Source: Escherichia coli (GTDB taxonomy: Bacteria > Pseudomonadota > Gammaproteobacteria > Enterobacterales > Enterobacteriaceae). Taken from it: DNA of 64,000 nt. The stretch lies in the NCBI RefSeq assembly GCF_002854065.1, contig NZ_CP024153.1; one strand, written 5' to 3'. A model generated the notes under the pieces. That model was given only the letters and a program-made list of their open reading frames with translations, did no database searches and was not told the DNA's origin. This document shows, one piece after another, positions 11,589 to 63,706 of this stretch. The position numbers and the translations under genes are program-made. The stretch's first letter is position 1, and the number at the start of each line of letters is the position of its first letter.

Positions 11589-11628
11589 AGACAAAAGGCT
11601 GCCTCATCGCTAACTTTGCAACAGTGCC
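11589..11628 (+). repeat. Tandem second copy of the last 40 bp of IS26 (remnant of an earlier IS26)
   Basis: AGACAAAAGGCTGCCTCATCGCTAACTTTGCAACAGTGCC occurs twice in direct succession (11549-11588 and 11589-11628). Confidence 0.85.
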
Positions 11629-15648: not shown

Positions 15649-16470
15649 GGCACTGTTGCAAAGTTAGCGATGAGGCAGCCTTTTGTCTTATTCAAAGGCC
15701 TTACATTTCAAAAACTCTGCTTACCAGGCGCATTTCGCCCAGGGGATCACCATAATAAAATGCTGAGGCCTGGCCTTTGCGTAGTGCACGCATCACCTCA
15801 ATACCTTTGATGGTGGCGTAAGCCGTCTTCATGGATTTAAATCCCAGCGTGGCGTTGATTATCCGTTTCAGTTTGCCATGATCGCATTCAATCACGTTGT
15901 TCCGGTACTTAATCTGTCGGTGTTCAACGTCAGACGGGCACCGGCCTTCGCGTTTTGAGCAGAGCAAGCGCGCGACCATAGGCGGGCGCTTTATCCGTGT
16001 TGATGAATCGTGGGAATCTGCCACTTCTTCACGTTGTTGAGGATTTTACCCAGAAACCGGTATGCAGCTTTGCTGTTACGACGGGAGGAGAGATAAAAAT
16101 CGACAGTGCGGCCCCGGCTGTCGACGGCCCGGTACAGATACGCCCAGCGGCCATTGACCTTCACGTAGGTTTCATCCATGTGCCACGGGCAAAGATCGGA
16201 AGGGTTACGCCAGTACCAGCGCAGCCGTTTTTCCATTTCAGGCGCATAACGCTGAACCCAGCGGTAAATCGTGGAGTGATCGACATTCACTCCGCGTTCA
16301 GCCAGCATCTCCTGCAGCTCACGGTAACTGATGCCGTATTTGCAGTACCAGCGTACGGCCCACAGAATGATGTCACGCTGAAAATGCCGGCCTTTGAATG
16401 GGTTCATGTGCAGCTCCATCAGCAAAAGGGGATGATAAGTTTATCACCACCGACTATTTGCAACAGTGCC
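15649..16470 (-). mobile_element. IS26 copy 4 (822 bp; two 1-bp insertions)
   Basis: Both terminal repeats present; extra A at about 16010 (GGGAATCTG vs GGGATCTG) and extra T at about 15953 (GCGTTTTGAGC vs GCGTTTGAGC). Confidence 0.95.
15701..16425 (-). pseudogene. tnpA: IS26 tnpA disrupted by frameshift (split into 144-aa and 107-aa ORFs; Asn184 form)
   Basis: ORFs 15991-16425 and 15701-16024 together cover Tnp26 with a frame change between them. Confidence 0.85.
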
Positions 16471-16584
16471 TAAAAATCGACCATACAGAGAGGGAAACCA
16501 CCGGAGTGGTGGGAAAAGCAGAAAGGCTCACGTGGCATAAGGCGTGGACAATGGTATCGACTGGTTTTTCAATTTCCTATACGT
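16471..16584. repeat. 114-bp fragment identical (inverted) to the 3'-side end of the IS91-family element at 23324-23437
   Basis: Reverse complement of 16471-16584 matches 23324-23437; abuts the IS26 end on one side and GTTC-containing flank on the other. Confidence 0.8.
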
Positions 16585-16673
16585 GAACTATTGAAGTAAT
16601 CAATCAAATTTTATAGGCTGATAGCCAAGTAACAACCACCAATGATATGCCAGGTAAAATCAGGGGACGTAAA

Positions 16674-18110
16674 ATGAGTACTCTTGATGTTCAGAAGCTC
16701 AAGGATGATGCCGTCGAATGGGCCTTAACTCATGGTGTTGCTTTCAAGGAATCGTCGTATTCCGCAGTGCATACCCCGTTTACCCTGACACCAACACCTA
16801 TCAGCCGTAAATCCTATCAGTACTTAAAGAATGCAACAGGAATACTCAGCAAATTAATCTATTCAGTTTCTGAGGATCATGATTTTTTGTACTCTGCGAT
16901 TTATCCCATCAAGGCCGGGAATGCCTTCTTTTCAGCCCTCCTGAACATGCATCAACAAATCCATTCATCATCAAGGCATGCTCCTCGATTACCATTACTC
17001 ATTATGCGTAGCGACTTTATGGATGATAATCGTGATGGGTTCAGGCTTATAGAGTTCAATGGTATAGCTGCAGGAATGGGGCCGTTTGGTCAGCGGATAC
17101 ATGATCTGCATCACTATCTACAACGGCAATATCCCGCTGTCTTTTCTGATTTATCGAATCAGGCAACAGGGGCGCTTGTCGACAATCAAGCGATCGAAGG
17201 GTTATCAGCAGCGATTTGTCAGGCAACTTGCAGAATTAAGCAGGAGTTCGGAGACCCCGGCCCTGCCAGGTTCCTGATGATTGTGCAGGAGAATGAAAAT
17301 AATGTGTTTGATCAACACTTGCTTGAGCTCGCCCTCCAGCAAAAAGGAATCGAAACGCATCGCAGGACTTTTCGTGAACTGCATAATCAATTGAGTACAG
17401 GCGCCGACAACAGGCTCATTCTCGAGGGTGTAGGCCCACTTGATACCGTCTACTTACGTGCCGGATATCAGTATTCTGATTATGAAGCATTCAATATCGA
17501 TGAGCAGGAGTGTTGTCAGGCGCTGATGGCGACCCGAGTATTCATTGAGCAGCACCGGGTTGCAGTGAACGCCACAGTTGGCCAGCAACTGGCGACCAGC
17601 AAGCGAGTACAAATGCTGCTCTCGCAATTGGGTTACGACGAGTTTGTCGCATTTGGATTAACACTGCAGGAAGCTAAAATAGCAAAAACGATACTGGGTG
17701 AGATGTTACCCATCAGCCCGGATAGTATCAACCTTGCAAAAGAGTCTCCTTCGGAAACCTGGGTTCTCAAAAATCAGGGTGAAGGCGGGGGGCATTGTCT
17801 GTTTGGTGCGGATATCCTGACAAAACTGACGGAACTCACTCCACAACAATATCAGTCCTGGTCGCTGATGCGCCGTTTACACCCTCAGCCCCGAGCTATG
17901 CCCACCTTGATTGTGCGTAAAGGGGAGTTGCATAAGGTGAATGATTTGATAAGCGAACTTGGAATGTTCTCCGTGCAGACAGATAACAATCCCTCCAGTG
18001 CTGAGCACAGTTTTGCTGGATATCTAATTCGTAGCAAATCAGCTGAATCGACAGAGGGAGGGGTCCATAGTGGACAAGGTGTTTTAGACTCGCTGGTATA
18101 CAGCGATTAG
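16674..18110 (+). CDS. Eukaryotic-type glutathione synthetase-like ATP-grasp protein (ORF track start 16647)
   Basis: Blocks resembling recalled human GSS: TPFTLTPT, IEFNGIAAGMGP, LMIVQENENNVFDQ...IETHRRTFREL, VYLRAGYQ, KNQGEGGGHCLFG. Confidence 0.7.
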   Translation: MSTLDVQKLKDDAVEWALTHGVAFKESSYSAVHTPFTLTPTPISRKSYQYLKNATGILSKLIYSVSEDHDFLYSAIYPIKAGNAFFSALLNMHQQIHSSSRHAPRLPLLIMRSDFMDDNRDGFRLIEFNGIAAGMGPFGQRIHDLHHYLQRQYPAVFSDLSNQATGALVDNQAIEGLSAAICQATCRIKQEFGDPGPARFLMIVQENENNVFDQHLLELALQQKGIETHRRTFRELHNQLSTGADNRLILEGVGPLDTVYLRAGYQYSDYEAFNIDEQECCQALMATRVFIEQHRVAVNATVGQQLATSKRVQMLLSQLGYDEFVAFGLTLQEAKIAKTILGEMLPISPDSINLAKESPSETWVLKNQGEGGGHCLFGADILTKLTELTPQQYQSWSLMRRLHPQPRAMPTLIVRKGELHKVNDLISELGMFSVQTDNNPSSAEHSFAGYLIRSKSAESTEGGVHSGQGVLDSLVYSD

Positions 18111-18527
18111 TCCCTTTCAAGGGGGCTGAAATCTGGTTATATGAAAGCATGCGGTAAGTGGTGTTTTAGCCCCAGTGGAGATGATGCTGTTTCTAGACTG
18201 AGTCGTAGTAAGCTAATAATAGTATTATAAATGAAGCCATGAGGGTATTTACAGGGCATATCTTATTAAGGGAACAACAGCAAAAACTGCTGCTATAAGA
18301 GGCTGCACCCAAAGTTCTTCAAGGTTCACATCATCGCTGCTGGGTCGATGCTGTTTCAGTTACGGGTCAATTTTCAATACCATTAGCTGTTCCTGTGACT
18401 ACGGTCATTACGCGCTGTCGACATCAATTTGTACAGCAAACAGTCTTAGCGTGGGATATTTAATGAGATGGTCACTCCCTCCTTCCCGGTACTATGCTGA
18501 GGATAGGCTTTCATTCGGAGAACTATC

Positions 18528-19532
18528 ATGGAAAACATTGCGCTCATTGGTATCGATCTGGGTAAAAACTCTTTCCATATTCATTGCCAAGATCGTCGCG
18601 GCAAGGCTGTTTACCGTAAAAAATTTACACGGCCAAAGTTAATCGAATTTTTGGCGACATGCCCCGCTACAACCATCGCAATGGAAGCCTGTGGTGGCTC
18701 TCACTTTATGGCACGCAAGTTGGAAGAGTTGGGGCATTTTCCTAAGCTGATATCACCACAATTTGTCCGTCCATTCGTTAAAAGTAACAAAAACGACTTT
18801 GTCGACGCCGAAGCTATTTGTGAAGCTGCATCGCGTCCGTCTATGCGTTTTGTACAGCCCAGAACTGAATCTCAGCAGGCAATGCGTGCGCTGCATCGTG
18901 TCCGTGAATCCCTGGTTCAGGATAAGGTAAAAACAACCAATCAGATGCATGCTTTTCTGCTGGAATTTGGCATCAGCGTTCCACGAGGAGCTGCCGTTAT
19001 TAGCCGACTGAGTACCCTTCTTGAGGACAATAGTTTGCCTCTATACCTCAGCCAGTTATTGCTGAAATTACAACAGCATTATCACTATCTTGTTGAGCAG
19101 ATTAAAGATTTGGAATCCCAGTTGAAACGAAAGTTGGACGAAGATGAGATTGGACAGCGCTTGCTGAGCATTCCCTGCGTCGGAACACTGACAGCGAGTA
19201 CTATTTCAACTGAGATTGGCGACGGGAAGCAGTACGCCAGCAGTCGTGACTTTGCGGCGGCAACAGGGCTAGTGCCTCGACAGTACAGCACGGGAGGTCG
19301 GACGACATTGCTGGGAATTAGTAAGCGAGGTAACAAAAAGATCCGAACTTTGTTGGTTCAATGTGCCAGGGTATTCATACAAAAACTGGAACACCAGTCT
19401 GGCAAATTGGCCGATTGGGTCAGGGATCTACTGTGTAGGAAAAGCAACTTTGTCGTCACTTGTGCTCTGGCAAACAAGCTGGCCAGAATAGCCTGGGCCC
19501 TAACGGCACGACAGCAAACTTATGTAGCATAA
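18528..19532 (+). CDS. IS110-family (DEDD) transposase/recombinase
   Basis: 334 aa MENIALIGIDLGKNSFHIHCQD... N-terminal RuvC-like DEDD character and C-terminal ...GISKRGNKKIRTLLVQCA... motif typical of the IS110 family. Confidence 0.85.
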   Translation: MENIALIGIDLGKNSFHIHCQDRRGKAVYRKKFTRPKLIEFLATCPATTIAMEACGGSHFMARKLEELGHFPKLISPQFVRPFVKSNKNDFVDAEAICEAASRPSMRFVQPRTESQQAMRALHRVRESLVQDKVKTTNQMHAFLLEFGISVPRGAAVISRLSTLLEDNSLPLYLSQLLLKLQQHYHYLVEQIKDLESQLKRKLDEDEIGQRLLSIPCVGTLTASTISTEIGDGKQYASSRDFAAATGLVPRQYSTGGRTTLLGISKRGNKKIRTLLVQCARVFIQKLEHQSGKLADWVRDLLCRKSNFVVTCALANKLARIAWALTARQQTYVA

Positions 19533-19807
19533 CGGCAGAAATACACCGGTTTAAAGAATCACTGATCTGGTTTTGCGAATACTGATATTGATGATACTAA
19601 CGGCCCACCGGCCTGTTGAGGAACCTGTAAAACGGAAAGGCTCATTGAAGCCGTATATTTTCTGGAGGTTCATCAGGCGCGGAACTCATCGAGGCGCGGG
19701 AATAAAATCCCATTCAGACGCCGGATAGATTCAAGCAAGCCAATTTATCGTCAAAATCGGTGTTGCAAAAACGGGAGTGACCATAGATTCCGTTTTCCAA
19801 GCGGACC

Positions 19808-19870
19808 CCGTGCTGTGTGGAAATCCGCCCACCTTGCCGGGCGCCGGTGCTGTGTGGAAATTCGCCCATC
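19808..19870. repeat. About 1.6 copies of the 37-bp repeat unit (inverted relative to the 56063-57150 array), just downstream of the truncated rep gene
   Basis: CCGTGCTGTGTGGAAATCCGCCCACCTTGCCGGGCGCCGGTGCTGTGTGGAAATTCGCCC is the reverse complement of the array unit. Confidence 0.75.
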
Positions 19871-19919
19871 TTCATGACAAAAATTTGTCAAATGACAGGC
19901 TCATGTGTGCTGATTTATG

Positions 19920-20601
19920 TCAGACGGGATTTTGCTTATCAATTATTGAGAACAGAAATTTTCCTGAATCATCAATACTATACTTAGCAAGTAAAGGTGT
20001 TTTCTCATTTATCTGCTTGAGAGCAGGATCAAGGAAAGATCGTTTCAACTCTGCCAAGTTCTTCTGTTGGGATTCCGGCAAAAGGAAACGGTCATTTAAC
20101 CAAGCATGAGTAGTAACCCATAAGCCTGAAGATTTGAATTGAGCAAGACTTTCATAAAGGCGGATCGTCCGTGGATTTCGAAGACTGCCACAATCGCGGA
20201 GCGAGTAGGTGGTGAACTGGTTCGTCAGGCCGTAAATGTACCGCAGGAGTTTATGGTTAAATTCGATTTCCCAGATACCACGAGCTGATCGGCTGCCAGC
20301 CTCTGTTAGCCAGGGGCGCGCGACGCAGTCAAAACTCCCTTCTTTCGGGTAAAAGATTACCGCAGAACGGCTTAACTCAAACACGCCTTCTTTAACATCC
20401 TTGATAGCCTGGTTACGGCTTACCTGAAAAATTTGCTGATAGTCAGCCACCTTTACTTTGAAAGTAGAGTCACCGAGTACAGCCATCTCATCATCATCTT
20501 CGCTTACTGAAGCTGTGAAATACGTCTGCATAAGACATAACCAGAGAACGCGCTTTGCTTTTAGCGAGAGGTAGTAAGCAGCTTCGGTAAGCTCGTTAGA
20601 C
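19920..20601 (-). pseudogene. Rep_3-family (RepE-like) replication initiator, N-terminally truncated by IS26
   Basis: ...NELTEAAYYLSLKAKRVLWL...IRLYESLAQF... parallels recalled F RepE ([20 protein letters not shown]...MRLYESLCQY); first 17 residues of the ORF come from the IS26 end. Confidence 0.75.
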
Positions 20602-21421
20602 GGCACTGTTGCAAAGTTAGCGATGAGGCAGCCTTTTGTCTTATTCAAAGGCCTTACATTTCAAAAACTCTGCTTACCAGGCGCATTTCGCCCAGGGGAT
20701 CACCATAATAAAATGCTGAGGCCTGGCCTTTGCGTAGTGCACGCATCACCTCAATACCTTTGATGGTGGCGTAAGCCGTCTTCATGGATTTAAATCCCAG
20801 CGTGGCGTTGATTATCCGTTTCAGTTTGCCATGATCGCATTCAATCACGTTGTTCCGGTACTTAATCTGTCGGTGTTCAACGTCAGACGGGCACCGGCCT
20901 TCGCGTTTGAGCAGAGCAAGCGCGCGACCATAGGCGGGCGCTTTATCCGTGTTGATGAATCGTGGGATCTGCCACTTCTTCACGTTGTTGAGGATTTTAC
21001 CCAGAAACCGGTATGCAGCTTTGCTGTTACGACGGGAGGAGAGATAAAAATCGACAGTGCGGCCCCGGCTGTCGACGGCCCGGTACAGATACGCCCAGCG
21101 GCCATTGACCTTCACGTAGGTTTCATCCATGTGCCACGGGCAAAGATCGGAAGGGTTACGCCAGTACCAGCGCAGCCGTTTTTCCATTTCAGGCGCATAA
21201 CGCTGAACCCAGCGGTAAATCGTGGAGTGATCGACATTCACTCCGCGTTCAGCCAGCATCTCCTGCAGCTCACGGTAACTGATGCCGTATTTGCAGTACC
21301 AGCGTACGGCCCACAGAATGATGTCACGCTGAAAATGCCGGCCTTTGAATGGGTTCATGTGCAGCTCCATCAGCAAAAGGGGATGATAAGTTTATCACCA
21401 CCGACTATTTGCAACAGTGCC
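20602..21421 (-). mobile_element. IS26 copy 5 (variant: Asn184 plus one synonymous change)
   Basis: 820 bp; ...KLKRIINATLGFKS... Confidence 0.95.
20654..21376 (-). CDS. tnpA: IS26 transposase Tnp26 (Asn184 form)
   Basis: 240-aa ORF; GGC to AAC at codon 184 relative to copies 1-3. Confidence 0.95.
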   Translation of the reverse strand: MLMELHMNPFKGRHFQRDIILWAVRWYCKYGISYRELQEMLAERGVNVDHSTIYRWVQRYAPEMEKRLRWYWRNPSDLCPWHMDETYVKVNGRWAYLYRAVDSRGRTVDFYLSSRRNSKAAYRFLGKILNNVKKWQIPRFINTDKAPAYGRALALLKREGRCPSDVEHRQIKYRNNVIECDHGKLKRIINATLGFKSMKTAYATIKGIEVMRALRKGQASAFYYGDPLGEMRLVSRVFEM

Positions 21422-21491
21422 GATTAGAGCACTATAAAGAACTAAAGAAATGAAGATACAAAGATACGAATATCTGAATAAAAACAGAAAA

Positions 21492-21612
21492 ATGCGTACC
21501 CATCCACCTTTCAGTGCGTACCCATCCACCTTTCAGTGCGCAGCCATCCACCTTTCATGAAAATTACAGTGCGTACCCATCCACCTTTCAGTGCGTACCC
21601 ATCCACCTTTCA
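21492..21612. repeat. Five direct 22-bp iteron-like repeats GTGCGTACCCATCCACCTTTCA (origin-like)
   Basis: Read directly; four near-perfect copies and one variant (GCGCAGCCATCCACCTTTCA). Confidence 0.75.
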
Positions 21613-21783
21613 TTTTGAGGCGACAAAAAACAACACCTATCTTAATGAAATTATTGATAAAAAAACTGGCACAATGTTTGCAGAATAAGTTAGAGTAAGT
21701 TAAAGATCTTAAAGTAGATCTACCGATCTACATTTAAGATCTTAAAAACAAGAAGTTTAATAAGCAAAAAAACACAAAAAATC

Positions 21784-21831
21784 TGTGGATAACTTTGCTC
21801 AAAACAAAAAATTCACACTACCTGTGGATAA
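21784..21831. promoter_or_regulatory. Two DnaA-box-like sites TGTGGATAA, 30 bp apart, in AT-rich DNA
   Basis: CTGTGGATAACTTTG appears twice; AT-rich context beside the iterons. Confidence 0.5.
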
Positions 21832-22474
21832 CTTTGCGTAAACCCAGAGGACAGATCACTCTGAACCAAGACAACCACACATAAAAACAATATGCTCGCT
21901 TTTTAACCACTGCGCGTAATTGCCTGATGTTATCCCTGTGCTGTTCCGCTTCCTCGCTCACTAACTCGCTACACTCGGTCGTTCGGCTGCGGCGAGCGGT
22001 GTCTCCTTTCTCAAAACCAGAAGAGTTCAGATCATACGATCCGTTGATTGATCCTTTTTGGATCTTTCACTGAGAAGCCCTGAATCGCTTTCTAACGCTT
22101 TGTTCGATGTAACCATGAGGAAAACCATGTGAAATCGAAAAAATCGCTCAGAATGCGATACAGCGCGTTTTAGAGGGTATTTACAAAACAGTCGTTGCCT
22201 TGAGGAAATTTTGATCAAGATTGAACTCCTATCCGGATCATGGCAACAGATCACAGCAACAAGGCCGCTAAAAAGCGTTGAGCGGCGTTAAAAACCGTTA
22301 AACCGTAGCTGACTATAACGAAACGGGAAAAAACGCTCAGAACGCGTTACAGAGCGTTTTAAGGCGATGTCGGAAAGAGCCATACCTCACCTGTTCTGAT
22401 GTTTTTCTCAACACAAGCACTTTTAAGAGTACTTTTAAAGATGCTATTATGCCAATAAGACAAGCGGAGGACTT

Positions 22475-22726
22475 ATGAGCTATCAAATTCTGACAACCAC
22501 AGCGGCCAGTATTACTGACCTGAAAAAAAATCCTATGGGAACCGTAGCTGAAGGTGAAGGGGACGCTGTTGCGATCCTGAACCGAAACGAACCGGCGTTC
22601 TATTGCGTTCCACCAAAACTTTACGCCTACTATCGGGAACTCGCTGAAGATGCTGAGTTAAACGCTGTTGCTGATGAGCGCATGAAAAACCCGGAAATTG
22701 TGAAGGTTAACCTGGATGACCTATGA
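22475..22726 (+). CDS. Phd/YefM/StbD-type antitoxin
   Basis: 83-aa ORF overlapping the downstream RelE-like gene by 11 bp; typical antitoxin size and arrangement. Confidence 0.7.
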   Translation: MSYQILTTTAASITDLKKNPMGTVAEGEGDAVAILNRNEPAFYCVPPKLYAYYRELAEDAELNAVADERMKNPEIVKVNLDDL

Positions 22727-22997
22727 ACTGGCTTTTGACCGCAGAGCACTGAAGGAATGGCAGAAACTCGGCCACACCATCCGTGAACAATTCAAAAAGA
22801 AGCTGGCAGAACGGCTGGAAAATCCACGCGTACCCGCAGCCCGGTTACATGGTCATGCTGATCGCTATAAAATCAAACTTCGTGCATCTGGCTACAGACT
22901 TGTATATCAAGTCATTGATGAGAAAGTCGTTTTACTCGTTATTGCTGTTGGAAGAAGGGAAAGCAGCGAAGTTTATCAGATTGCAGATATGCGCTGA
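22716..22997 (+). CDS. RelE/StbE/ParE-family toxin
   Basis: 93 aa MTYELAFDRRALKEWQKLGHTIREQFKKKLAERLENPRVPAARLHGHADRYKIKLRASGYRLVYQVIDEKVVLLVIAVGRRE, characteristic RelE/StbE pattern. Confidence 0.8.
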   Translation: MTYELAFDRRALKEWQKLGHTIREQFKKKLAERLENPRVPAARLHGHADRYKIKLRASGYRLVYQVIDEKVVLLVIAVGRRESSEVYQIADMR

Positions 22998-23183
22998 ACT
23001 GAAACCCGCCCCGTAATTCGCGGCTGCAGCCGCTCAGACGCGCAGATGCTACACACCGTCACGGCGTACCGTTCGCAAGCTTACGCGCTAACTGCGAAAG
23101 GCTAATTGCGTGTTGTTAGTCCGGTAATGGGCTTTGCAGGGAGGGGGGATGTCCCTGATCTTAATTAAGCTGGTTTGTTTCCG

Positions 23184-23325
23184 GGCACTGTTGCAAAGTT
23201 AGCGATGAGGCAGCCTTTTGTCTTATTCAAAGGCCTTACATTTCAAAAACTCTGCTTACCAGGCGCATTTCGCCCAGGGGATCACCATAATAAAATGCTG
23301 AGGCCTGGCCTTTGCGTAGTGCACG
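23184..23325 (-). mobile_element. IS26 fragment (142 bp of one end, internally truncated)
   Basis: GGCACTGTTGCAAAGTTAGCGATGAGG...GCGTAGTGCACG matches the IS26 end, then diverges. Confidence 0.9.
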
Positions 23326-25002
23326 TATAGGAAATTGAAAAACCAGTCGATACCATTGTCCACGCCTTATGCCACGTGAGCCTTTCTGCTTTTCCCACCA
23401 CTCCGGTGGTTTCCCTCTCTGTATGGTCGATTTTTATACCGTAACAGGCTGTTTTTTATACTTTCACCGATTCCCGGGCACACTTAGCCTGTGTCAGGCC
23501 GGCATATACCTCAGTAGACTGATATCCCGCGCGTTTTTCTTCAGCCCTGATACATTCAGCCCCGCAATGGCCCGGCGGTATACCATCCGGCAGCCACACA
23601 GCACGCATTCGAACGGGTCACGACTCAGGAACTGTTTCACCATTTGTGCATAGCACACTTTCGCCACTGGTTCCGGTTTATCCATCCCCAGTGCACGGTA
23701 CACCTGCGGCAGCTTCTCTCCACACACACGGTTGGCAAGGAACCCGAAGTACCTCACCATCTTAAAAAACTTCTCCGGGATGTGCTGTTTCAGCCTCGCG
23801 ACCAGCTCACGCTGTGTCAGCGTTTCCGTCGCCGTTTCTCCCGTTTTGTGGTCCAGGTAACGGAAGCTCAGGCTTGCCCCTCCGTTGTAATGAGCCAGTC
23901 GGGAAGCCGCTATTGGTGGCTTCTTCAGATAACGACCCAGGTAGCGTGCCGTATTCCGCCCTCCGGCTGTCTTCTTCGACATGTACACATGCCAGTATTT
24001 TCCGCCGGATTTCAGCACCAGGCTTCTCCACTGTGATTCCGTCGTGATATGTGACAACGACTCCGGCATTGCCATCCCCTCTGACCACGCTTTCAGAAGC
24101 AGCTGCCGCATATTCCACATCCACCGTGAACGCATCGCGTCTTTCAGGAAGCTCAGCTTTTTCCACTGACCATGCTTATTCAGACCTCCACAGGTTACAG
24201 ACACATGTACATGCGGATGCCAGTTGAGACGACGGCCATACGTGTGGATGGCGCAGAAGATACCGGGTTCCAGCCCCCGTTTTCGGGCGGCATACAGCAG
24301 ATTCTCCACCGCCAGACGGCACACGTCATTCAGCAGCCAGCGGTTGCTTTCGAACACCGGCCACAGCGTGTCCGGCAGGGTGAAGACCAGATGTACCCAG
24401 TCGCAGTCAGGAAGACGATTCAGCTGTGTTGCTGTCCACAGGTCTGTGGCCTTCTTTCCGCAGGACGGGCAGGCACGGCTGCCGCATGAGTTGGTCAGGT
24501 ACTTTACGTGCTGACAGTCCGGGTTATCACACCCGAACTCTTTTACACCCAGTATCCGTGTGCCGCAGGCCAGCATTTTGGTGACGGCTTCAACCTCGAT
24601 ATCGCGCAGACCGCCCGCATCCAGGAAGGACGTCCAGCACTGGTTGGCTGTGAACAGACGTTTCAGAGGGCGGGGAGTAAAACCGGACAACATGAGGATG
24701 GATTAAACCCCGGTATCCTGTAGCAGGGTAAGGGCTGCTGTATCGCCACGGCGCTTCAGGATGGAGGTCGTCACCATCGCAGGTGGTGGGTCCATGGGTT
24801 TGAGCATTTTCATCCAGTCCCATTCTCGTTGTGAGAGCTTCTCAGCACCAACAGAGAGCAGAACTGTATCGATACTTTTGCGGGTCAACATAAGGGGATG
24901 AGTCCTTAATAAAACAGGTCCTCAGAGCATACATATTCTGCGGGGCGTGCGGCAACAACAGGACGAACCGGGGCGGTTTTCAATTTGCAGCCGCCAGGCT
25001 GC
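23326..25002 (-). mobile_element. IS91-family rolling-circle element (IS1294-like, about 1.68 kb); boundaries approximate
   Basis: Single HUH/Y2-type transposase ORF plus small upstream ORF; length consistent with IS1294; one end duplicated at 16471-16584. Confidence 0.65.
23494..24693 (-). CDS. tnpA: IS91-family (IS1294-like) transposase
   Basis: 399 aa with Cys-rich zinc-binding N-terminus (CGTRILGVKEFGCDNPDCQHVKYLTNSCGSRACPSCGKK), HVH (HPHVHVSV) motif and C-terminal tyrosines typical of IS91-family Y2 transposases. Confidence 0.85.
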   Translation of the reverse strand: MLSGFTPRPLKRLFTANQCWTSFLDAGGLRDIEVEAVTKMLACGTRILGVKEFGCDNPDCQHVKYLTNSCGSRACPSCGKKATDLWTATQLNRLPDCDWVHLVFTLPDTLWPVFESNRWLLNDVCRLAVENLLYAARKRGLEPGIFCAIHTYGRRLNWHPHVHVSVTCGGLNKHGQWKKLSFLKDAMRSRWMWNMRQLLLKAWSEGMAMPESLSHITTESQWRSLVLKSGGKYWHVYMSKKTAGGRNTARYLGRYLKKPPIAASRLAHYNGGASLSFRYLDHKTGETATETLTQRELVARLKQHIPEKFFKMVRYFGFLANRVCGEKLPQVYRALGMDKPEPVAKVCYAQMVKQFLSRDPFECVLCGCRMVYRRAIAGLNVSGLKKNARDISLLRYMPA

Positions 25003-26448
25003 CGTGGTTCATGATAACTTCTGCTCTTCATCGTGCGGCCGACTGGGCTAAATCTGTGTTCTCTTCGGCGGCGCTGGGTGATCCTCGCCGTACTGCCCGC
25101 TTGGTTAACGTCGCCGCCCAATTGGCAAAATATTCTGGTAAATCAATAACCATCTCATCAGAGGGTAGTGAAGCCATGCAGGAAGGCGCTTACCGATTTA
25201 TCCGCAATCCCAACGTTTCTGCCGAGGCGATCAGAAAGGCTGGCGCCATGCAAACAGTCAAGTTGGCTCAGGAGTTTCCCGAACTGCTGGCCATTGAGGA
25301 CACCACCTCTTTGAGTTATCGCCACCAGGTCGCCGAAGAGCTTGGCAAGCTGGGCTCTATTCAGGATAAATCCCGCGGATGGTGGGTTCACTCCGTTCTC
25401 TTGCTCGAGGCCACCACATTCCGCACCGTAGGATTACTGCATCAGGAGTGGTGGATGCGCCCGGATGACCCTGCCGATGCGGATGAAAAGGAGAGTGGCA
25501 AATGGCTGGCAGCGGCCGCAACTAGCCGGTTACGCATGGGCAGCATGATGAGCAACGTGATTGCGGTCTGTGACCGCGAAGCCGATATTCATGCTTATCT
25601 GCAGGACAAACTGGCGCATAACGAGCGCTTCGTGGTGCGCTCCAAGCACCCACGCAAGGACGTAGAGTCTGGGTTGTATCTGTACGACCATCTGAAGAAC
25701 CAACCGGAGTTGGGTGGCTATCAGATCAGCATTCCGCAAAAGGGCGTGGTGGATAAACGCGGTAAACGTAAAAATCGACCAGCCCGCAAGGCGAGCTTGA
25801 GCCTGCGCAGTGGGCGCATCACGCTAAAACAGGGGAATATCACGCTCAACGCGGTGCTGGCCGAGGAGATTAACCCGCCCAAGGGTGAGACCCCGTTGAA
25901 ATGGTTGTTGCTGACCAGCGAACCGGTCGAGTCGCTAGCCCAAGCCTTGCGCGTCATCGACATTTATACCCATCGCTGGCGGATCGAGGAGTTCCATAAG
26001 GCATGGAAAACCGGAGCAGGAGCCGAGAGGCAACGCATGGAGGAGCCGGATAATCTGGAGCGGATGGTCTCGATCCTCTCGTTTGTTGCGGTCAGGCTGT
26101 TACAGCTCAGAGAAAGCTTCACGCTGCCGCAAGCACTCAGGGCGCAAGGGCTGCTAAAGGAAGCGGAACACGTAGAAAGCCAGTCCGCAGAAACGGTGCT
26201 GACCCCGGATGAATGTCAGCTACTGGGCTATCTGGACAAGGGAAAACGCAAGCGCAAAGAGAAAGCAGGTAGCTTGCAGTGGGCTTACATGGCGATAGCT
26301 AGACTGGGCGGTTTTATGGACAGCAAGCGAACCGGAATTGCCAGCTGGGGCGCCCTCTGGTAAGGTTGGGAAGCCCTGCAAAGTAAACTGGATGGCTTTC
26401 TTGCCGCCAAGGATCTGATGGCGCAGGGGATCAAGATCTGATCAAGAG
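25003..26448 (+). mobile_element. IS50L of Tn5, outside end (~85 bp) missing
   Basis: Homology to IS50 begins about 8 bp before the tnp start; ochre codon truncates Tnp as in IS50L; inside end CTGATCAAGAGACAG precedes aph(3')-IIa. Confidence 0.85.
25011..26363 (+). CDS. tnp: IS50L transposase (C-terminally short form ending ...GIASWGALW)
   Basis: 450 aa MITSALHRAADWAKSVFSSAALGDPRRTARLVNVAAQLAKYSGKSITISSEG... Confidence 0.9.
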   Translation: MITSALHRAADWAKSVFSSAALGDPRRTARLVNVAAQLAKYSGKSITISSEGSEAMQEGAYRFIRNPNVSAEAIRKAGAMQTVKLAQEFPELLAIEDTTSLSYRHQVAEELGKLGSIQDKSRGWWVHSVLLLEATTFRTVGLLHQEWWMRPDDPADADEKESGKWLAAAATSRLRMGSMMSNVIAVCDREADIHAYLQDKLAHNERFVVRSKHPRKDVESGLYLYDHLKNQPELGGYQISIPQKGVVDKRGKRKNRPARKASLSLRSGRITLKQGNITLNAVLAEEINPPKGETPLKWLLLTSEPVESLAQALRVIDIYTHRWRIEEFHKAWKTGAGAERQRMEEPDNLERMVSILSFVAVRLLQLRESFTLPQALRAQGLLKEAEHVESQSAETVLTPDECQLLGYLDKGKRKRKEKAGSLQWAYMAIARLGGFMDSKRTGIASWGALW

Positions 26449-26457
26449 ACAGGATGA

Positions 26458-27264
<807 letters not shown>

Positions 27265-54841: not shown

Positions 54842-56062
54842 TGTAGATTCAATCTGTCAATGCAACACCCCTTTCAATTATCTCTTTCGGTGTTTTGAAC
54901 TTCAGTGTCTTTCTCGGTCTGTTGTTTAGCTGAGCAGCAACCAGATCTAGTTCATGTTGAGTATATTGGGCAAGACATGTCTTTTTAGGAAAGTACTGCC
55001 GAATTAGCCCATTTGTGTTCTCATTTGTTCCCCGCTGCCAAGGACTCTGAGGATCGCAGAAGTAAACTTTAACGCCGGTGCTGACAGTAAATTCTAGATG
55101 TCTGGCCAGTTCCATTCCTCTGTCCCATGTCAGTGATTTTCTGAGTTCTGACGGTAAACTCAGGAATTTGTCGGTAAGAGCCTGATTTACTGAGACAGAA
55201 TCTTTGCCCCTGAGTCTAAGGATGATCGTATAACGTGATTTTCGGTCTACAAGTGTGGCTATATGAGAGTTTTTTGTACCTGAGACTAAATCGCCCTCCC
55301 AATGCCCCAGAGAGCGTCTGTTATCGATATTTCGGGAACGTTCGTGAATTGGTGTTCCGTTCACTATGTTAATCGTACCTCTTTCGCCTTTGCGGGTATG
55401 ACGCCTGCCATGGCGAAGGCTATGCGACCGTCGCAGATGCTGTATATTCAGGTGGTGTAGCGCTTCACGGCTACGAAAGTACAGCGTTTTATAAATTGTC
55501 TCAGGTGATATTCGCAGCGTTTTTTGACGTGGTTTTGTTCGCCTTAACCATCCTGATATTTGCTCTGGAGACCATTTCATCTCCAGCTTTTCCAGAACAA
55601 GCTTTCGCAATGGTAAATTTTGATCCAGTAAGCACGGTTTTGGCCTTTTCGCCATTCTGTTGGCTCGGTTATTAGCATCAACAGCTTTGTAATAGCGTCT
55701 GCCCCGATTACGCTGAACTTCACGTGAGATCGTCGAAGGACTGCGATTCAGCGCAGTAGCTATCGCACGAATGCTCATTTTGGCTGACAAACCAGCTCGT
55801 ATCTCCTCGCGCTCAGACAGTGTCAGGTGAGCTACAGCCCGCTTACGCTCATGGGGTTTTATGCCGCCAGTATCCCTTAACATAGTGAAGATCGTTCCGG
55901 GTTTTGAACCCAGGATATTCGCTATTTCACTGAAGCCTGTTCCGTTCTTCCATAGTTCAAAAACAGAGGCTTTTTCCTCTGCTGTAAATGTTCATCTCAT
56001 TCAAAAAACCTCCGCAACCCCATGTTTTCACATAACTGTTGCGTTGACCAATTGAATCTACA
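54842..56062 (-). mobile_element. IS30 (1221 bp)
   Basis: Terminal repeats TGTAGATTCAAT...; no matching 2-bp target duplication (GC left, GG right). Confidence 0.9.
54849..56000 (-). pseudogene. IS30 transposase with TGA at codon 3 (ATG AGA TGA); 344-aa ORF resumes at internal Met
   Basis: Recalled IS30 Tnp begins MRRTFTAEEK...; window reads M R stop T F T A E E K in the same frame. Confidence 0.7.
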
Positions 56063-57150
56063 GGGCGGATTTCCACACAGCACCGGCGCCCGGCAAGGTG
56101 GGCCGATTTCCACACAGCACCGGTGCGCGGCAAGGTGGGCCGATTTCCACACAGCACCGGCGCCCGGCAAGGTGGGCTGATTCCCACACGGCACCGGCGC
56201 CCGGCAAGGTGGGCGGATTTCCACACAGCACCGGCGCGCGGCAAGGTGGGCTGATTCCCACACGGCACCGGCGCCCGGTAAGGTGGGCGGATTTCCACAC
56301 GGCACCGGCGCCCGGTAAGGTGGGCGGATTTCCACACAGCACCGGCGCCCGGCAAGGTGGGCTGATTCCCACACGGCACCGGCGTCCGGTAAGGTGGGCG
56401 GATTTCCACACAGCACCGGCGCGCGGCAAGGTGGGCCGATTTCCACACGGCACCGGCGCCCGGCAAGGTGGGCGGATTTCCACACGGCACCGGCGCCCGG
56501 TAAGGTGGGCTGATTCCCACACGGCACCGGCGCCCGGCAAGGTGGGCTGATTCCCACACGGCACCGGCGCCCGGTAAGGTGGGCGGATTTCCACACAGCA
56601 CCGGCGCGCGGCAAGGTGGGCTGATTCCCACACGGCACCGGCGTCCGGTAAGGTGGGCGGATTTCCACACAGCACCGGCGCGCGGCAAGGTGGGCTGATT
56701 CCCACACGGCACCGGCGCCCGGTAAGGTGGGCGGATTTCCACACGGCACCGGCGCCCGGCAAGGTGGGCTGATTCCCACACGGCACCGGCGCCCGGCAAG
56801 GTGGGCTGATTCCCACACGGCACCGGCGCCCGGTAAGGTGGGCTGATTCCCACACAGCACCGGCGCCCGGCAAGGTGGGCTGATTCCCACACGGCACCGG
56901 CGCCCGGCAAAGTGGGCGGATTTCCACACAGCACCGGCGCCCGGTAAGGTGGGCGGATTTCCACACAGCACCGGCGCCCGGCAAGGTGGGCTGATTCCCA
57001 CACGGCACCGGCGCCCGGTAAGGTGGGCGGATTTCCACACAGCACCGGCGCGCGGCAAGGTGGGCCGATTTCCACACAGCACCGGCGCCCGGCAAGGTGG
57101 GCGGATTTCCACACAGCACCGGCGCGCGGCAAGGTGGGCCGATTCCCATA
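56063..57150. repeat. Tandem array of ~29 copies of a 37-bp GC-rich repeat (consensus GGGCNGATTYCCACACRGCACCGGYGCSCGGYAAGGT)
   Basis: Period and copy variants read directly; begins exactly at the IS30 end. Confidence 0.9.
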
Positions 57151-59366: not shown

Positions 59367-59536
59367 CCACTTCAAACATGCTTCGTTCAGATCCCAACAG
59401 AGTTTTCACCATCGCCTGTAACAGCCGTCCTGCTGCGTGATTACTCCGCTCAACGGGTTGCTGGCGACAAGTCAATACCTGTTCGTGACAGGTATTGATT
59501 GAACCGTTGTCCCTAACTAATAATGTGCCGACGATG

Positions 59537-59750
59537 CAGGTGGGACCGTGGTCCCAGGGAGATAACCTGACCGGCGATACAGGTGGGACCGTGGTCCCAG
59601 GGAGATAACCTGACCGGCGATACAGGTGGGACCGTGGTCCCAGGGAGATAACCTGACCGGCGATACAGGTGGGACCGTGGTCCCAGGGAGATAACCTGAG
59701 CGGCGATACAGATGGGACCGTGGTCCCAGAGAGAATATTCAGGCCAGTTA
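59537..59750. repeat. sopC: sopC-like centromere: about 5 tandem 43-bp repeats each containing the inverted repeat TGGGACCGTGGTCCCA
   Basis: Read directly; immediately downstream of sopB as in F plasmid. Confidence 0.85.
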
Positions 59751-59817
59751 TGTTTTCTGGCCTGTGAGAAAGGAAATGAAGTAAAGGGAGATCACCGTAG
59801 ACTAAAGCGTGTCCGCA

Positions 59818-60789
59818 TCAGACTCCTGGTTTCTCAAGCTCCTTAAGAATGGCTTCTATTTTCTCTATACACTCCGCAGGAATGCGGGACCTATCCAGGT
59901 TAAGCACCATTTTATCGCCCTTATACAATGCTGTTGCCCCTGGAGCAAACTGATGACGTGAGCTCAGATTAACTCTTGATGCGGGGGATTGTTTCAGTAC
60001 GGATGTTAAAAGACTAATGACCTCTTCAGCTTCAAAGATTAGTCCCGCTTTCTTCTGATCGTGGAGAGTCTCAGCCTGCTGCTTCAGTAATTCTTCTTTA
60101 TCTGCAAAAGCCTTCTGAAGGGCTTCACCTGACCGGGCAGACAGTTCTCCAGGATGTGCAAACAGGGCAACAACGGATTTAGGCAATTTGGCCGTATTGA
60201 TACAGCGGGTAATGATCTTACGAGAGATGTTTTCCGCATCGGCAAGCGCAGAAATATTTCCTGCAAACTCATTCTGCAGCCGGCTTGTATAACGCAGGCC
60301 ACGTTCATAAGCACTCGTCGGCCGATAATCGTTACCCAGTCGGGACAATGCAGCCATCTGCTCATCGTCCAGTTCACCAACCAGAACGCGATAATCACTT
60401 TCCGTCAGGATTGCGGCTTTACGGCGACGGCTGCCGTCGGCAATTTCTATGACATCAGAAACCCGGCGGCCGAAAGCTGGAGTCTGCTGACCGGTCAGTA
60501 AAAATGAAGGAATGAGATCATCCAGAGCATCTTCGGTAAGTAGTTCCTGATCGCGCTCATTGCCTGACCATACGCGTGAAGCGCTCTCAACAGAGTCTCC
60601 CCGGAGCACCTCAAGGGTAAATTTTACTTCCCGTCCACATACCGGAAGAGAGATTGCATTACCGCGGGCCATAGCACCCACGCGCGCAATTAATGAATCC
60701 ACCATCGGCGCGGCCGGCGCCGGTGATGAAGTATCTTCAGTCGATTGAGTATGTGTGGTATGTCTTGGAATGACAGGAGCACGCTTCAT
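59818..60789 (-). CDS. sopB: SopB/ParB centromere-binding partition protein
   Basis: 323-aa ORF immediately downstream of sopA and upstream of sopC repeats. Confidence 0.88.
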
Positions 60790-61964
60790 TATCTAATCTC
60801 CCAGCGTGGTTTAATCAGACGATCAAAAATCTCATTGCAAACAGGCTCCCAGATAGAGAGGGCATTACGCCAGGCACCGGTTGAAGAACGTTGATCAATA
60901 GCCTGTTCAAAAACGGTTCTCATACGGATCTGACCTTTACCGACTTCATCCGTTTCGCGCACAACATTTTTAAGGACCATGCTTCCCCAGGCATCCCGAA
61001 TTTGTTCTTCCATCCACGGGGACTGTGAGCCATTATTATTACTGTATTTGGTAAGCAGAATACGGACATCTGGCTCGAAGCCTTTAAGATCCACGTTCTT
61101 AAGCAGGTCACGAAGCATATCGAAAAACTGCAGTGCGGAGGTGTAGTCGAACAGCTCTGCCGGAGTAGGGACAATCAGAACATCAGCAGCGCATACAACA
61201 TTTATCGTACCGATACCAAGGTTAGGTGCACTGTCGATAACTATCACGTCATAATCATGAGCGACAGTTTCAATGGCCAGACGGAGCATCAGGTGCGGGT
61301 CAGCAGGTAATTTGCCTTCGTCAAATTTCCCCATCAGCTCGGTTTCAATGCGGTGCAGTGCCAGACAGGACGGGATGATATCAAGGCCAGGCCAGCAGGT
61401 GGGCTTTATAGCGTAGCTGGCGTCATCCTTTTCCCCAAGATAAAAGGGTAGGAGAGTGTCCTCAGCATGAATATGAAGATCGGGCACCCATCCGTGATAC
61501 ATAGAAGCAGTTCCCTGTGGGTCATTGCCTTCAACAAGCAGAACACGGAGTCCTTTCAGAGCAAGATCCTGAGCCAGGTGAACGGATACTGAGGTTTTGT
61601 AAACACCACCTTTGTGAGCTGCAACGCCAATCACCGGCGGAAACGCATCTTCAGCACGGCGCAGTCGTGTACCAAATACATCCCGCATGTGATTGATTTG
61701 TTCGATGGTATAACCAACGCGTTGCTCAACTCTCCCACGGGTTTCCATATCAGGGTGCGGCAGCCGGCCAGCTTTCTCGGCATCCCTGATAGCCTGAGAT
61801 GACACGCCAACTAAATCTGCCGCTTCACCAATCCTCCAGCGCCGGGTTATTTTCCGGGCTTCCGGACTGTCATCATTAAACTGTGCAATGGCGATTGCTT
61901 TCGTCATTTCATGACCAGCACTTATGCACTGGTTGAGTGTATCCATGAGTCCCATACTGAACAT
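60789..61964 (-). CDS. sopA: SopA/ParA type Ia partition ATPase (F-plasmid-like)
   Basis: Near-identical to recalled F SopA: ...[55 protein letters not shown]...; Walker A KGGVYKTS. Confidence 0.9.
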
Positions 61965-62149
61965 CCTTTAACCATCACTTTGCATTATTTTATTAAATCT
62001 TGGAATTTATTGCAAAGCAACAATAAAATCGCAAAGCACACGAAAAAGTGCAAAGTGAACCACATTGGCTAATGAAAGAACGCAGGGGATTACAAAAGAG
62101 TACATACTGCAGTCAATATTAATCACTGCCGCTCGCCGCAGTAAGCGAT

Positions 62150-62680
62150 CTCACAAAGTGAGAAAGCGGCGAGGAAGCGGAAAATCACAGAACTCACAGA
62201 TTGCACGTACGTCGGGTTGCTAAAGATGACTCGGGATCAGCCAGTTATAATGAAATTGACTGCGGTATGTAATATATTGACTATGGTATGATGCTTACCG
62301 CATCTGTAGGAAAGACGACTCAGCATACCGCAGTCAATGTTTCATTGTTGTACCTGTAGATCTCAATCTTCCAGAGCGTATTCAGGAAAATCAGGCCAGG
62401 GTTCTGGATATCTGGTGTGGCGCTTCCGGCCTTGTATCTGGGTTATTCATGGTCTCGATCCAATAATTGATCCCAAGGAGATCATAGTGAGATCCAAAAG
62501 AGATCCCCGGATCGCTCCAGCATGCGCTGTAACTGGCTTTAACGTCTGTCTGGATCGACTGCGGAATGTAAAATGTTGACTGTTATATGCATAATCTAAT
62601 ACTGTGATATGCAACGGTATTTACTGAGGTATGTATATCTGTTGACTGCGATACGTATTACTACATCCTTTTGTGGATAA
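62150..62680. repeat. Iteron cluster upstream of repB (multiple TTGACTG(C/T)GGTATG-like repeats in both orientations)
   Basis: ATTGACTGCGGTATGT, ATTGACTATGGTATGA, CATACCGCAGTCAAT, TGTTGACTGTTATATG, TGTTGACTGCGATACG read directly. Confidence 0.7.
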
Positions 62681-62683
62681 CCG

Positions 62684-63706
62684 TTGAGGATCAAGATGAC
62701 GAGCGAAAATAATAGCTTACTTCTGAACCTTCAGGAAGTTGATAAGACAACCGGTGAAGTTGTTAAGCTGGATGTCAACAGCACCAGTACCGTGCAGCCA
62801 GTAGCGCTCATGAGACTCGGTCTCTTCGTCCCAACTCTGAAATCAACAGGGAAGAGCAAGGCGAACCGGAAAAACGTTACAGACGCGACTGAGGAGCTTG
62901 TACAGCTGTCCATTGCCAAAAGCGAAGGATACACTGACGTTAAGATCACCGGTTCGCGTCTTGATATGGACACGGATTTTAAAGTCTGGCTGGGGATAAT
63001 TCGCTCCATGTCGGAGTATGGGGTAAAAAGTGACACCCTGGAACTGTCGTTCGTCGAATTCGTTAAGATGTGCGGATTTGACTCCCGTCGTTCAAACAAA
63101 AAAATGCGCGATCGCATCAGTAATTCCCTGTTTAAACTCGCCTCGGTTACGCTGAAGTTCCAGAGCGAGACCAAAGGATGGACCACCCATCTGGTGCAGT
63201 CAGCCTATTATGACATCAACGAGGATATCGTTGAGATCAAGGCTGAACCTAAGCTGTTTGAGCTTTACCACATGGACAGAAGGGTACTTCTGCGGCTGAA
63301 AGCCATTGACGCCCTGCAGCGCAAGGAATCAGCCCAGGCGCTTTATACCTACATCGAAAGTCTTCCCCAGAATCCTGCACCTATTTCCATGAAACGGATG
63401 CGTGACCGGCTGAATCTCACCTCAAATGTCTATACGCAGAACCACACGGTGCGTAAGGCGATGGAGCAGCTGCGGGATATTGGTTATCTGGATTACACTG
63501 AGTTTAAACGTGGCCGAGCCACCTATTTCAGCGTGCATTATCGCAACCCCAAACTCATCAGTGGTCCTGTGAAGGTTCCGCGCAAAGAGGAAGAAGAGAA
63601 GGCGCCAGAGCAAAATTATGACGAAGTCATTAAGGCGCTGAAGGCTGCTGGCATCGATCCCCTTAAACTGGCCGAAGCTCTCTCAGCGATGAAGCCAGAA
63701 AATTGA
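62684..63706 (+). CDS. repB: Rep_3-family replication initiator (RepB/RepA of IncFIB/IncR-like replicon); start may be internal (MTSENN...)
   Basis: 340 aa; ...[16 protein letters not shown]... and ...[25 protein letters not shown]... resemble recalled IncR/IncFIB RepB; flanked by iterons. Confidence 0.8.

Follow-up and report, generated by a model that had tools for sequence, protein, structure and literature searches.

A 64,000-nucleotide stretch of Escherichia coli plasmid DNA (contig NZ_CP024153.1; hereafter the window) contains, at 19808-21850, a 5'-truncated replication initiator gene, a copy of the insertion sequence IS26 and a set of iterons with DnaA boxes. An earlier reading made from the letters alone (hereafter the sequence-only reading) had taken these parts for one RepE-like replicon dismembered by IS26. 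Here we conclude, with high confidence, that the locus consists of remnants of two unrelated replicons, of the incompatibility (Inc) groups IncN and IncX1, which are joined by IS26, and that it is not one broken replicon. The rep fragment is that of the IncN plasmid R46, the iterons and DnaA boxes are those of the IncX1 plasmid pD90-3, and no target-site duplication accompanies the IS26.

Two replicon remnants on either side of IS26

The translation of the truncated gene, ΔrepA, corresponds to residues 14-239 of R46 RepA with 100% identity, as determined by tblastn and blastp. Relative to R46 the first 38 nt (codons 1-13), the start codon, the promoter and all upstream DNA have been replaced by IS26, which bears out the earlier observation that the gene lacks its N-terminus and promoter. 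Both Rep_3 domains are retained (Rep3_N, E = 1e-27; Rep3_C, E = 1.5e-9), and the Pfam match begins at residue 1 of the fragment. Assignment to RepE of the F plasmid fails, with a score of 127 bits for the NCBIfam equivalog PRK13742 against a cut-off of 342, and the gene is RepE-like solely in belonging to the Rep_3 superfamily. In R46, repA is preceded by five 22-bp repeats of its own (AAGGTGGGCCAATTCCCATAAC), an AT-rich tract and a TGTGGATAT box, and is followed by about seven copies of a 37-bp repeat. The latter has been described as the RepA-binding site (PMC9412624, citing Papp & Iyer 1995). The upstream repeats are absent beside ΔrepA and, with up to 5 mismatches allowed, match in the window only inside an array of 37-bp repeats at 56.1-57.1 kb. 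Downstream of ΔrepA about 1.7 copies of the 37-bp repeat survive, versus the seven or so of R46. The alignment with R46 begins at window position 19807 and the IncN homology at about 19808-19810. Position 19808, where the sequence-only reading had the locus begin, is the start of the first surviving 37-bp copy, a repeat which that reading did not mention. Just past these repeats lies the transposase gene of an IS110-family element, labelled in matching records as an IS110-like IS4321 family transposase gene that adjoins glutathione synthase.

On the other side of IS26 the window is 100% identical to pD90-3 over 5,039 bp (21422-26460). In pD90-3 and p3-H9 this origin sequence is found directly upstream of the gene for a 279-aa Rep_3 initiator, with a second rep gene and ddp next, which is the typical IncX1 arrangement; the initiator gene is called either pir or repX in papers. 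The window leaves the native IncX1 sequence precisely where IS26 ends, a point that in pD90-3 is 181 bp upstream of the pir start codon; the pir promoter region and two ATCCACCTT core sites are thereby lost. A tblastn screen of the window with both pD90-3 initiators did not find a pir-like gene, its only match being the IncN ΔrepA at 22% identity.

The five iterons show 0-2 mismatches to GTGCGTACCCATCCACCTTTCA, which had 0 matches in shuffled sequence, and they are identical to those of pD90-3 and p3-H9. The exact iteron of the window is present in both IncX1 loci and absent from the R46 locus. A set of five upstream of pir/repX is the normal IncX1 complement (Burmølle et al., PMC3402527). Next to the iterons is an AT-rich tract of 27-30% GC, where unwinding of DNA at the IncX1 origin probably takes place. 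Four GATC sites fall in a 37-bp part of it (21705-21741), versus 0.86 expected in the tract, and these lie inside a 14-nt inverted or direct repeat pair. The DnaA box sequence TGTGGATAA occurs at 21784 and 21823, and in four copies in the whole window, where 0.44 would be expected by chance. Five IncX1 plasmids aligned with the window (92-100% overall identity) show no variation in the AT/GATC tract, in either DnaA box or, apart from a copy number of 5-7, in the iterons. The layout of a theta origin, with five 22-bp iterons, two DnaA boxes and AT-rich DNA, had been recognized correctly by the sequence-only reading. Further to the right, the stbDE genes are 100% identical to those of pD90-3 (products WP_000121743 and WP_000220561) and intact; nothing else in the IncX1 fragment is obviously functional.

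A search with the IncX1 origin gave 528 matching records in 515 E. coli genomes. Near-identical origins, including those of p1354d and p1916D18-1, have five, six or seven iterons and differ by whole 22-bp units at the pir-proximal end.

Of the seven complete IS26 copies in the window, the fifth stands between the two remnants. It has the variant bases A459 and AA613-614, which are common to copies 4, 6 and 7 (around oqxAB); copies 1-3 are canonical. Its 8-bp flanks, CGTTAGAC and GATTAGAG, differ, hence their comparison shows no 8-bp target-site duplication at this copy. Residual repA 5' sequence or a repA promoter was not found beyond IS26 either, the far flank being IncX1 DNA. The independence of the two junctions is shown by their separate occurrence in public plasmids. 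A 300-bp probe spanning the ΔrepA/IS26 junction was searched in PLSDB and found in 216 plasmids at 99.9-100% identity, and a probe spanning the junction of IS26 with the IncX1 origin was found in about 30 records, mostly pig IncHI2 plasmids of about 270 kb such as pSTM6-275. This plasmid has both junctions, on separate IS26 copies about 140 kb apart. When the whole configuration of ΔrepA, IS26 and IncX1 origin was searched for in PLSDB and in all complete E. coli RefSeq genomes, both junctions were never found on one IS26.

Table 1. Coordinates of the IncN and IncX1 remnants, the IS26 that joins them, their neighbours and the resident replicon
Feature	Position in window	Strand	Remark
gshB	16647-18110		first in the order gshB, IS4321/5075-type IS, 37-bp repeats, ΔrepA
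Transposase gene, IS110 family (IS4321/IS5075-type)	18528-19532	plus	IS just past the IncN 37-bp repeats; left limit of IncN remnant
IncN 37-bp repeat remnant ('iteron II')	19808-19880		full copy 19810-19846 plus degenerate terminal copy
ΔrepA of IncN	19920-20601	minus	Rep_3 initiator gene, 5'-truncated; abuts IS26 at 20601/20602
IS26::ΔrepA fusion open reading frame	19920-20648	minus	242 aa; TTG start inside IS26 end
IS26 copy 5	20602-21421	minus	820 bp; exact 14-bp terminal repeats 20602-20615 and 21408-21421
tnp26 of IS26 copy 5	20654-21358	minus	same direction as ΔrepA
IncX1 spacer	21422-21491		from the lost pir promoter region to the iterons
Five IncX1 22-bp iterons	21492-21513, 21514-21535, 21536-21557, 21569-21590, 21591-21612		3 + 2 with 11-bp spacer
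AT-rich tract	21613-21783		GC 0.27 versus 0.51 for the window
Two perfect DnaA boxes (TTATCCACA)	21784-21792, 21823-21831	minus	each within a repeat unit of ~37 nt
stbD/stbE	22475-22997	plus	intact Phd/YefM-type antitoxin and ParE/RelE-type toxin; IncX1 backbone addiction module
IS26 end remnant	23184-23328	plus	145 bp; right limit of IncX1 fragment
Transposase gene, IS91 family (IS1294)	23494-24693	minus	after the IS26 remnant; followed by IS50, aph(3')-IIa, IS26-oqxAB-IS26
Resident replicon and partition system	59528-63706		
43-bp repeats, 4.8 copies	59528-59734		beside sopAB
sopB	59818-60789	minus	above equivalog cut-off
sopA	60789-61964	minus	above equivalog cut-off
Four 19-bp repeats	62256-62660		upstream of repB
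DnaA box	62672		just upstream of repB
repB	62696-63706	plus	Pfam Rep_3 WH1 and WH2

The left module was also encountered in a shorter state. Many IncHI2 plasmids of about 250-330 kb have gshB, IS4321 and a short stub of the 37-bp repeats that is kept only to window position 19872 (compared over 16471-19872). Since the homology in those plasmids ends before repA, there are at least two forms of the left IncN module, one of them lacking ΔrepA.

A second and much larger block of 37-bp repeats is located at 56063-57148. It comprises 29.4 tandem copies, 91-95% like the IncN 37-bp repeats of R46, and each copy contains a 22-bp core (AAGGTGGGC[C/T]GATT[T/C]CCACAC) that resembles the IncN upstream iteron. 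No repA was detected beside this array by tblastn. On one side of it is an open reading frame (ORF; 54849-55883) which we take, from reading the sequence by eye, to encode an IS30-family transposase. The array sits in the part of the window (40000-64000) that aligned at 99% coverage to pS13D, and it corresponds to what PMC9412624 describes as the 'N region', a remnant of IncN beside sil clusters.

Replication of the plasmid and proposed assembly of the chimera

As far as the window shows, the plasmid depends for its replication on the RepB/sopAB replicon (59.5-63.7 kb), the only one present that appears complete; the two remnants would presumably not replicate. The sequence-only reading had also assigned replication to the repB replicon at 62.7 kb, and this replicon indeed looks intact, with Rep_3 WH1 and WH2 domains, 19-bp repeats, a DnaA box and sopAB alongside. 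Of the typing of both rep genes that had been proposed as a check, one half was clear, ΔrepA being IncN. The RepB at 62.7 kb had no match to an NCBIfam family, and its label IncFIB or IncFIA comes solely from the MOB-suite typing of relatives in PLSDB. The same RepB (WP_000200070) opens the records of pLAO66 and related plasmids.

We propose, as the simplest reading, that both modules pre-existed as IS26-bounded units and came to share one IS26. The left one would be a travelling IncN remnant that consists of gshB, IS4321/5075, about 1.7 copies of the 37-bp repeat and ΔrepA without codons 1-13, and that ends at IS26. The right one would be a travelling IncX1 remnant that extends from IS26 and has the complete origin core, stbDE, an IS26 stub, IS1294, IS50 and aph(3')-IIa, with pir and its promoter removed. 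The route could have been homologous recombination between IS26 copies, or formation of an IS26 cointegrate followed by its resolution. Recombination of two existing modules via IS26 would explain why a target-site duplication is lacking.

Neither half would be expected to initiate replication in cis. ΔrepA has neither its promoter nor the IncN upstream repeats, and the IncX1 origin has no cognate initiator protein π in the window, while IncN RepA, which is 24% identical to π, has other iterons. The earlier inference that the replicon at this site is probably inactive is reasonable on these grounds. The sequence-only reading had also considered that the iterons might belong to a different, intact replicon. 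They do come from a different replicon, IncX1, but this one is not intact anywhere in the 64 kb. The IncX1 piece has probably been kept through its linkage to the stbDE addiction module and the resistance genes.

It is hardly credible that IS26 simply inserted in the 5' end of the rep gene of one RepE-like replicon and thereby divided it. Gene order and orientation do mimic a Rep_3 theta replicon, since a minus-strand rep has iterons, an AT-rich tract and DnaA boxes upstream, and R46 too has five 22-bp repeats upstream of repA. However, each of the two parts, rep fragment and iterons, has its 100% match in a different plasmid group, the missing 5' end and promoter of repA are not beyond an IS26 that lacks a target-site duplication, and the two junctions are found independently in hundreds of plasmids.

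Several other observations weigh against our view of two inert remnants, and they bear on two further explanations. One of these holds that the IncX1 origin is active and the molecule effectively has two replicons, because π is made from a pir beyond the window or comes from a co-resident IncX1 plasmid. The origin core is complete and identical to that of functional IncX1 plasmids, with five iterons, the AT/GATC tract and both DnaA boxes, and by analogy with the R6K γ-ori pir is not needed in cis. A relative, pLAO66, has the same RepB backbone and also an IncX1 region with pir intact, so that a pir beyond the visible 64 kb is possible, whether on the rest of this plasmid or on an IncX1 plasmid in the same cell. 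A separate point against our view is that the iterons of IncX1 and IncN have a common AAGGTGG core, which makes weak cross-binding possible; elsewhere they differ, with 11 of 22 positions matching in direct comparison. Within the 64 kb, however, there is no pir-like sequence, the native position of pir is taken by IS26, and the same pir-less module in IncHI2 plasmids of about 270 kb, which are not typed IncX1 by MOB-suite, fits a passive passenger. We consider a working IncX1 origin unlikely.

The other explanation concerns the fusion ORF, in which 16 IS26-derived residues precede RepA residue 14 and which in pS13D, with the same junction, is a coding sequence of 729 bp (WP_152921961). Read-through from tnp26 might express it as an IncN RepA, functional or dominant-negative, which would bind the 37-bp arrays and cause incompatibility against IncN plasmids. 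Since ΔrepA has both winged-helix domains, is co-directional with and downstream of tnp26 and has an in-frame TTG, low-level expression of a RepA-like protein is possible. The conservation of the junction across its 216 plasmids and the 29.4-copy array in the window, made of repeats cited as RepA-binding sites (PMC9412624), also speak for it. However, a consensus scan gave no sigma-70-like promoter at the IS26/ΔrepA junction, the only minus-strand site being inside repA (20519-20490), and a hybrid promoter at the junction was rejected on this result. Any expression of the fusion ORF would therefore be by read-through. Direct reading of the sequence found poor -10 candidates 16-18 nt after the -35 element of IS26 (TTGCAA), and a Shine-Dalgarno-like AAGG is only 3 nt upstream of the TTG start. 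The high identity of the junction is explained by recent spread and does not require selection. Taken together, an active fusion protein is very unlikely.

If the locus is, as we conclude, a chimera of two remnants, any titration of initiator or incompatibility by the iterons, as the sequence-only reading had raised, would act on IncX1 π and not on the adjacent Rep. By analogy with the R6K γ-ori, the five IncX1 iterons could still bind π from an incoming IncX1 plasmid, with incompatibility or firing of the origin as the outcome. On this basis we put forward, as a speculation that is more likely wrong than right, that the pir-less origin core, spread in IS26-bounded modules on IncF-like and IncHI2 plasmids, titrates or handcuffs the π of incoming IncX1 plasmids or fires with it. 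If true, the host plasmid would act against IncX1 resistance plasmids as a determinant of incompatibility or exclusion. Alternatively, its ~1.7 kb of perfect homology could seed cointegrates with them.

Relation to described plasmids and to replicon typing

Both scars are of ordinary, already described kinds in multiresistance plasmids, and only for this combination of junctions was no match found in PLSDB or among complete E. coli genomes. For the left side, an 'additional IncN replication region' has been described in F33:A-:B- plasmids, which consists of a truncated repA, an 'iteron region II' of 37-bp repeats and gshB, with an insertion of IS5075 downstream of iteron II (PMC6052338). This IncN1 segment of pHNFP460-1 and pHNZY32, derived from an IncN replicon of the R46/pKM101 type, has the same IS26-truncated repA, 37-bp repeats, gshB and IS5075/IS4321 as the window. 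It differs in that five 37-bp repeats were reported, versus about 1.7 here, and in that the IS26 here is shared with an IncX1 origin fragment. Its repA was reported as 81 bp shorter, a figure not reconciled with the 38 nt that are missing relative to the R46 annotation; a different annotated start of repA is probably the reason. The order of elements right of the iterons (IS26 remnant, IS1294, IS50, aph(3')-IIa, oqxAB) has likewise been described (PMC6052338).

For the right side, the IncX1 replication region of pOLA52 and pD90-3 has the order ddp3-bis-(repX)-pir-iterons-DnaA boxes-stbDE. Identity with the window is 100% from 181 bp upstream of pir through stbDE, whereas pir, its promoter with the two ATCCACCTT sites, repX, bis and ddp3 are gone here and IS26 stands in their place. 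A close counterpart is the pir-less module of IncHI2 plasmids such as pSTM6-275 (NZ_CP019647), with the order IS26-IncX1 ori-stbDE-IS1294-IS50-aph(3')-IIa-IS26. It has the same junction of IS26 and origin and is 99.2% identical over 7.1 kb from IS26 on. In pSTM6-275, however, IncHI2 backbone adjoins the outer end of an IS26 of canonical sequence; in the window IncN ΔrepA takes that place, next to an IS26 with the A459/AA613-614 bases. The pSTM6-275 paper makes no mention of IncN, IncX, repA, stbD or iterons.

The γ-origin of R6K (IncX2) has a like layout: upstream of pir, tandem 22-bp iterons adjoin an AT-rich tract and DnaA boxes. Its core replicates with π supplied in trans, which is the basis of pir-dependent vectors. 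R6K has seven iterons, versus five here, and the iteron sequence differs. Another composite plasmid in which a degenerate IncX1 region accompanies a second replicon is pLN126_33 (PMC3402527). In that case the initiator was kept and a 77-bp deletion left a single iteron, whereas here five iterons were kept and the initiator was lost.

These scars matter for replicon typing. PGAP treats the same fusion ORF of other plasmids as complete and names its product 'replication initiation protein', and carriers of the IS26::ΔrepA stub are typed IncN by MOB-suite. Such plasmids are thus counted as IncN multireplicons, though their IncN replicon would be dead, which makes for false IncN calls; at least 216 PLSDB plasmids carry the same stub. 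Adjacency across an IS26 is also no evidence of common origin, and here two Rep_3-type fragments form a convincing but false layout of rep, iterons and DnaA box. Finally, if the orphan IncX1 iterons bind π, they could affect which IncX1 resistance plasmids coexist with this plasmid family.

Minor observations around the locus

A scan of 19000-24000 found no Rfam family at E <= 1, and this region thus offers no candidate for an antisense or copy-control RNA. Between the IncX1 DnaA boxes and stbD is a 42-nt direct repeat (22131-22172 and 22320-22361, 83% identity), which a partition or regulatory protein might bind. The whole 1-kb query right of IS26 recurs in about four places per IncX1 plasmid. 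The sequence at 21935-22003 presumably resembles that just outside the ColE1/pMB1 origin of pBR322/pUC (ttccgcttcctcgctcact.actcgct...ggtcgttcggctgcggcgagcggt), and many small mobilizable plasmids match this part at 90-95% identity. A single-strand initiation (primosome assembly) hairpin at about 21935-22003 is no more than a guess, since DNA folding of both strands was no better than that of shuffled sequences (z = 0.17 and 1.11).

Two further traces of IS26 were noted. IS26 copy 4 (15649-16470) is 822 bp long and has two single-base insertions relative to the other copies, by which its transposase frame is broken. At 11589-11628 an extra 14-bp IS26 terminal repeat with 26 bp of IS26 end is duplicated directly after IS26 copy 3, forming a small IS26-end remnant.

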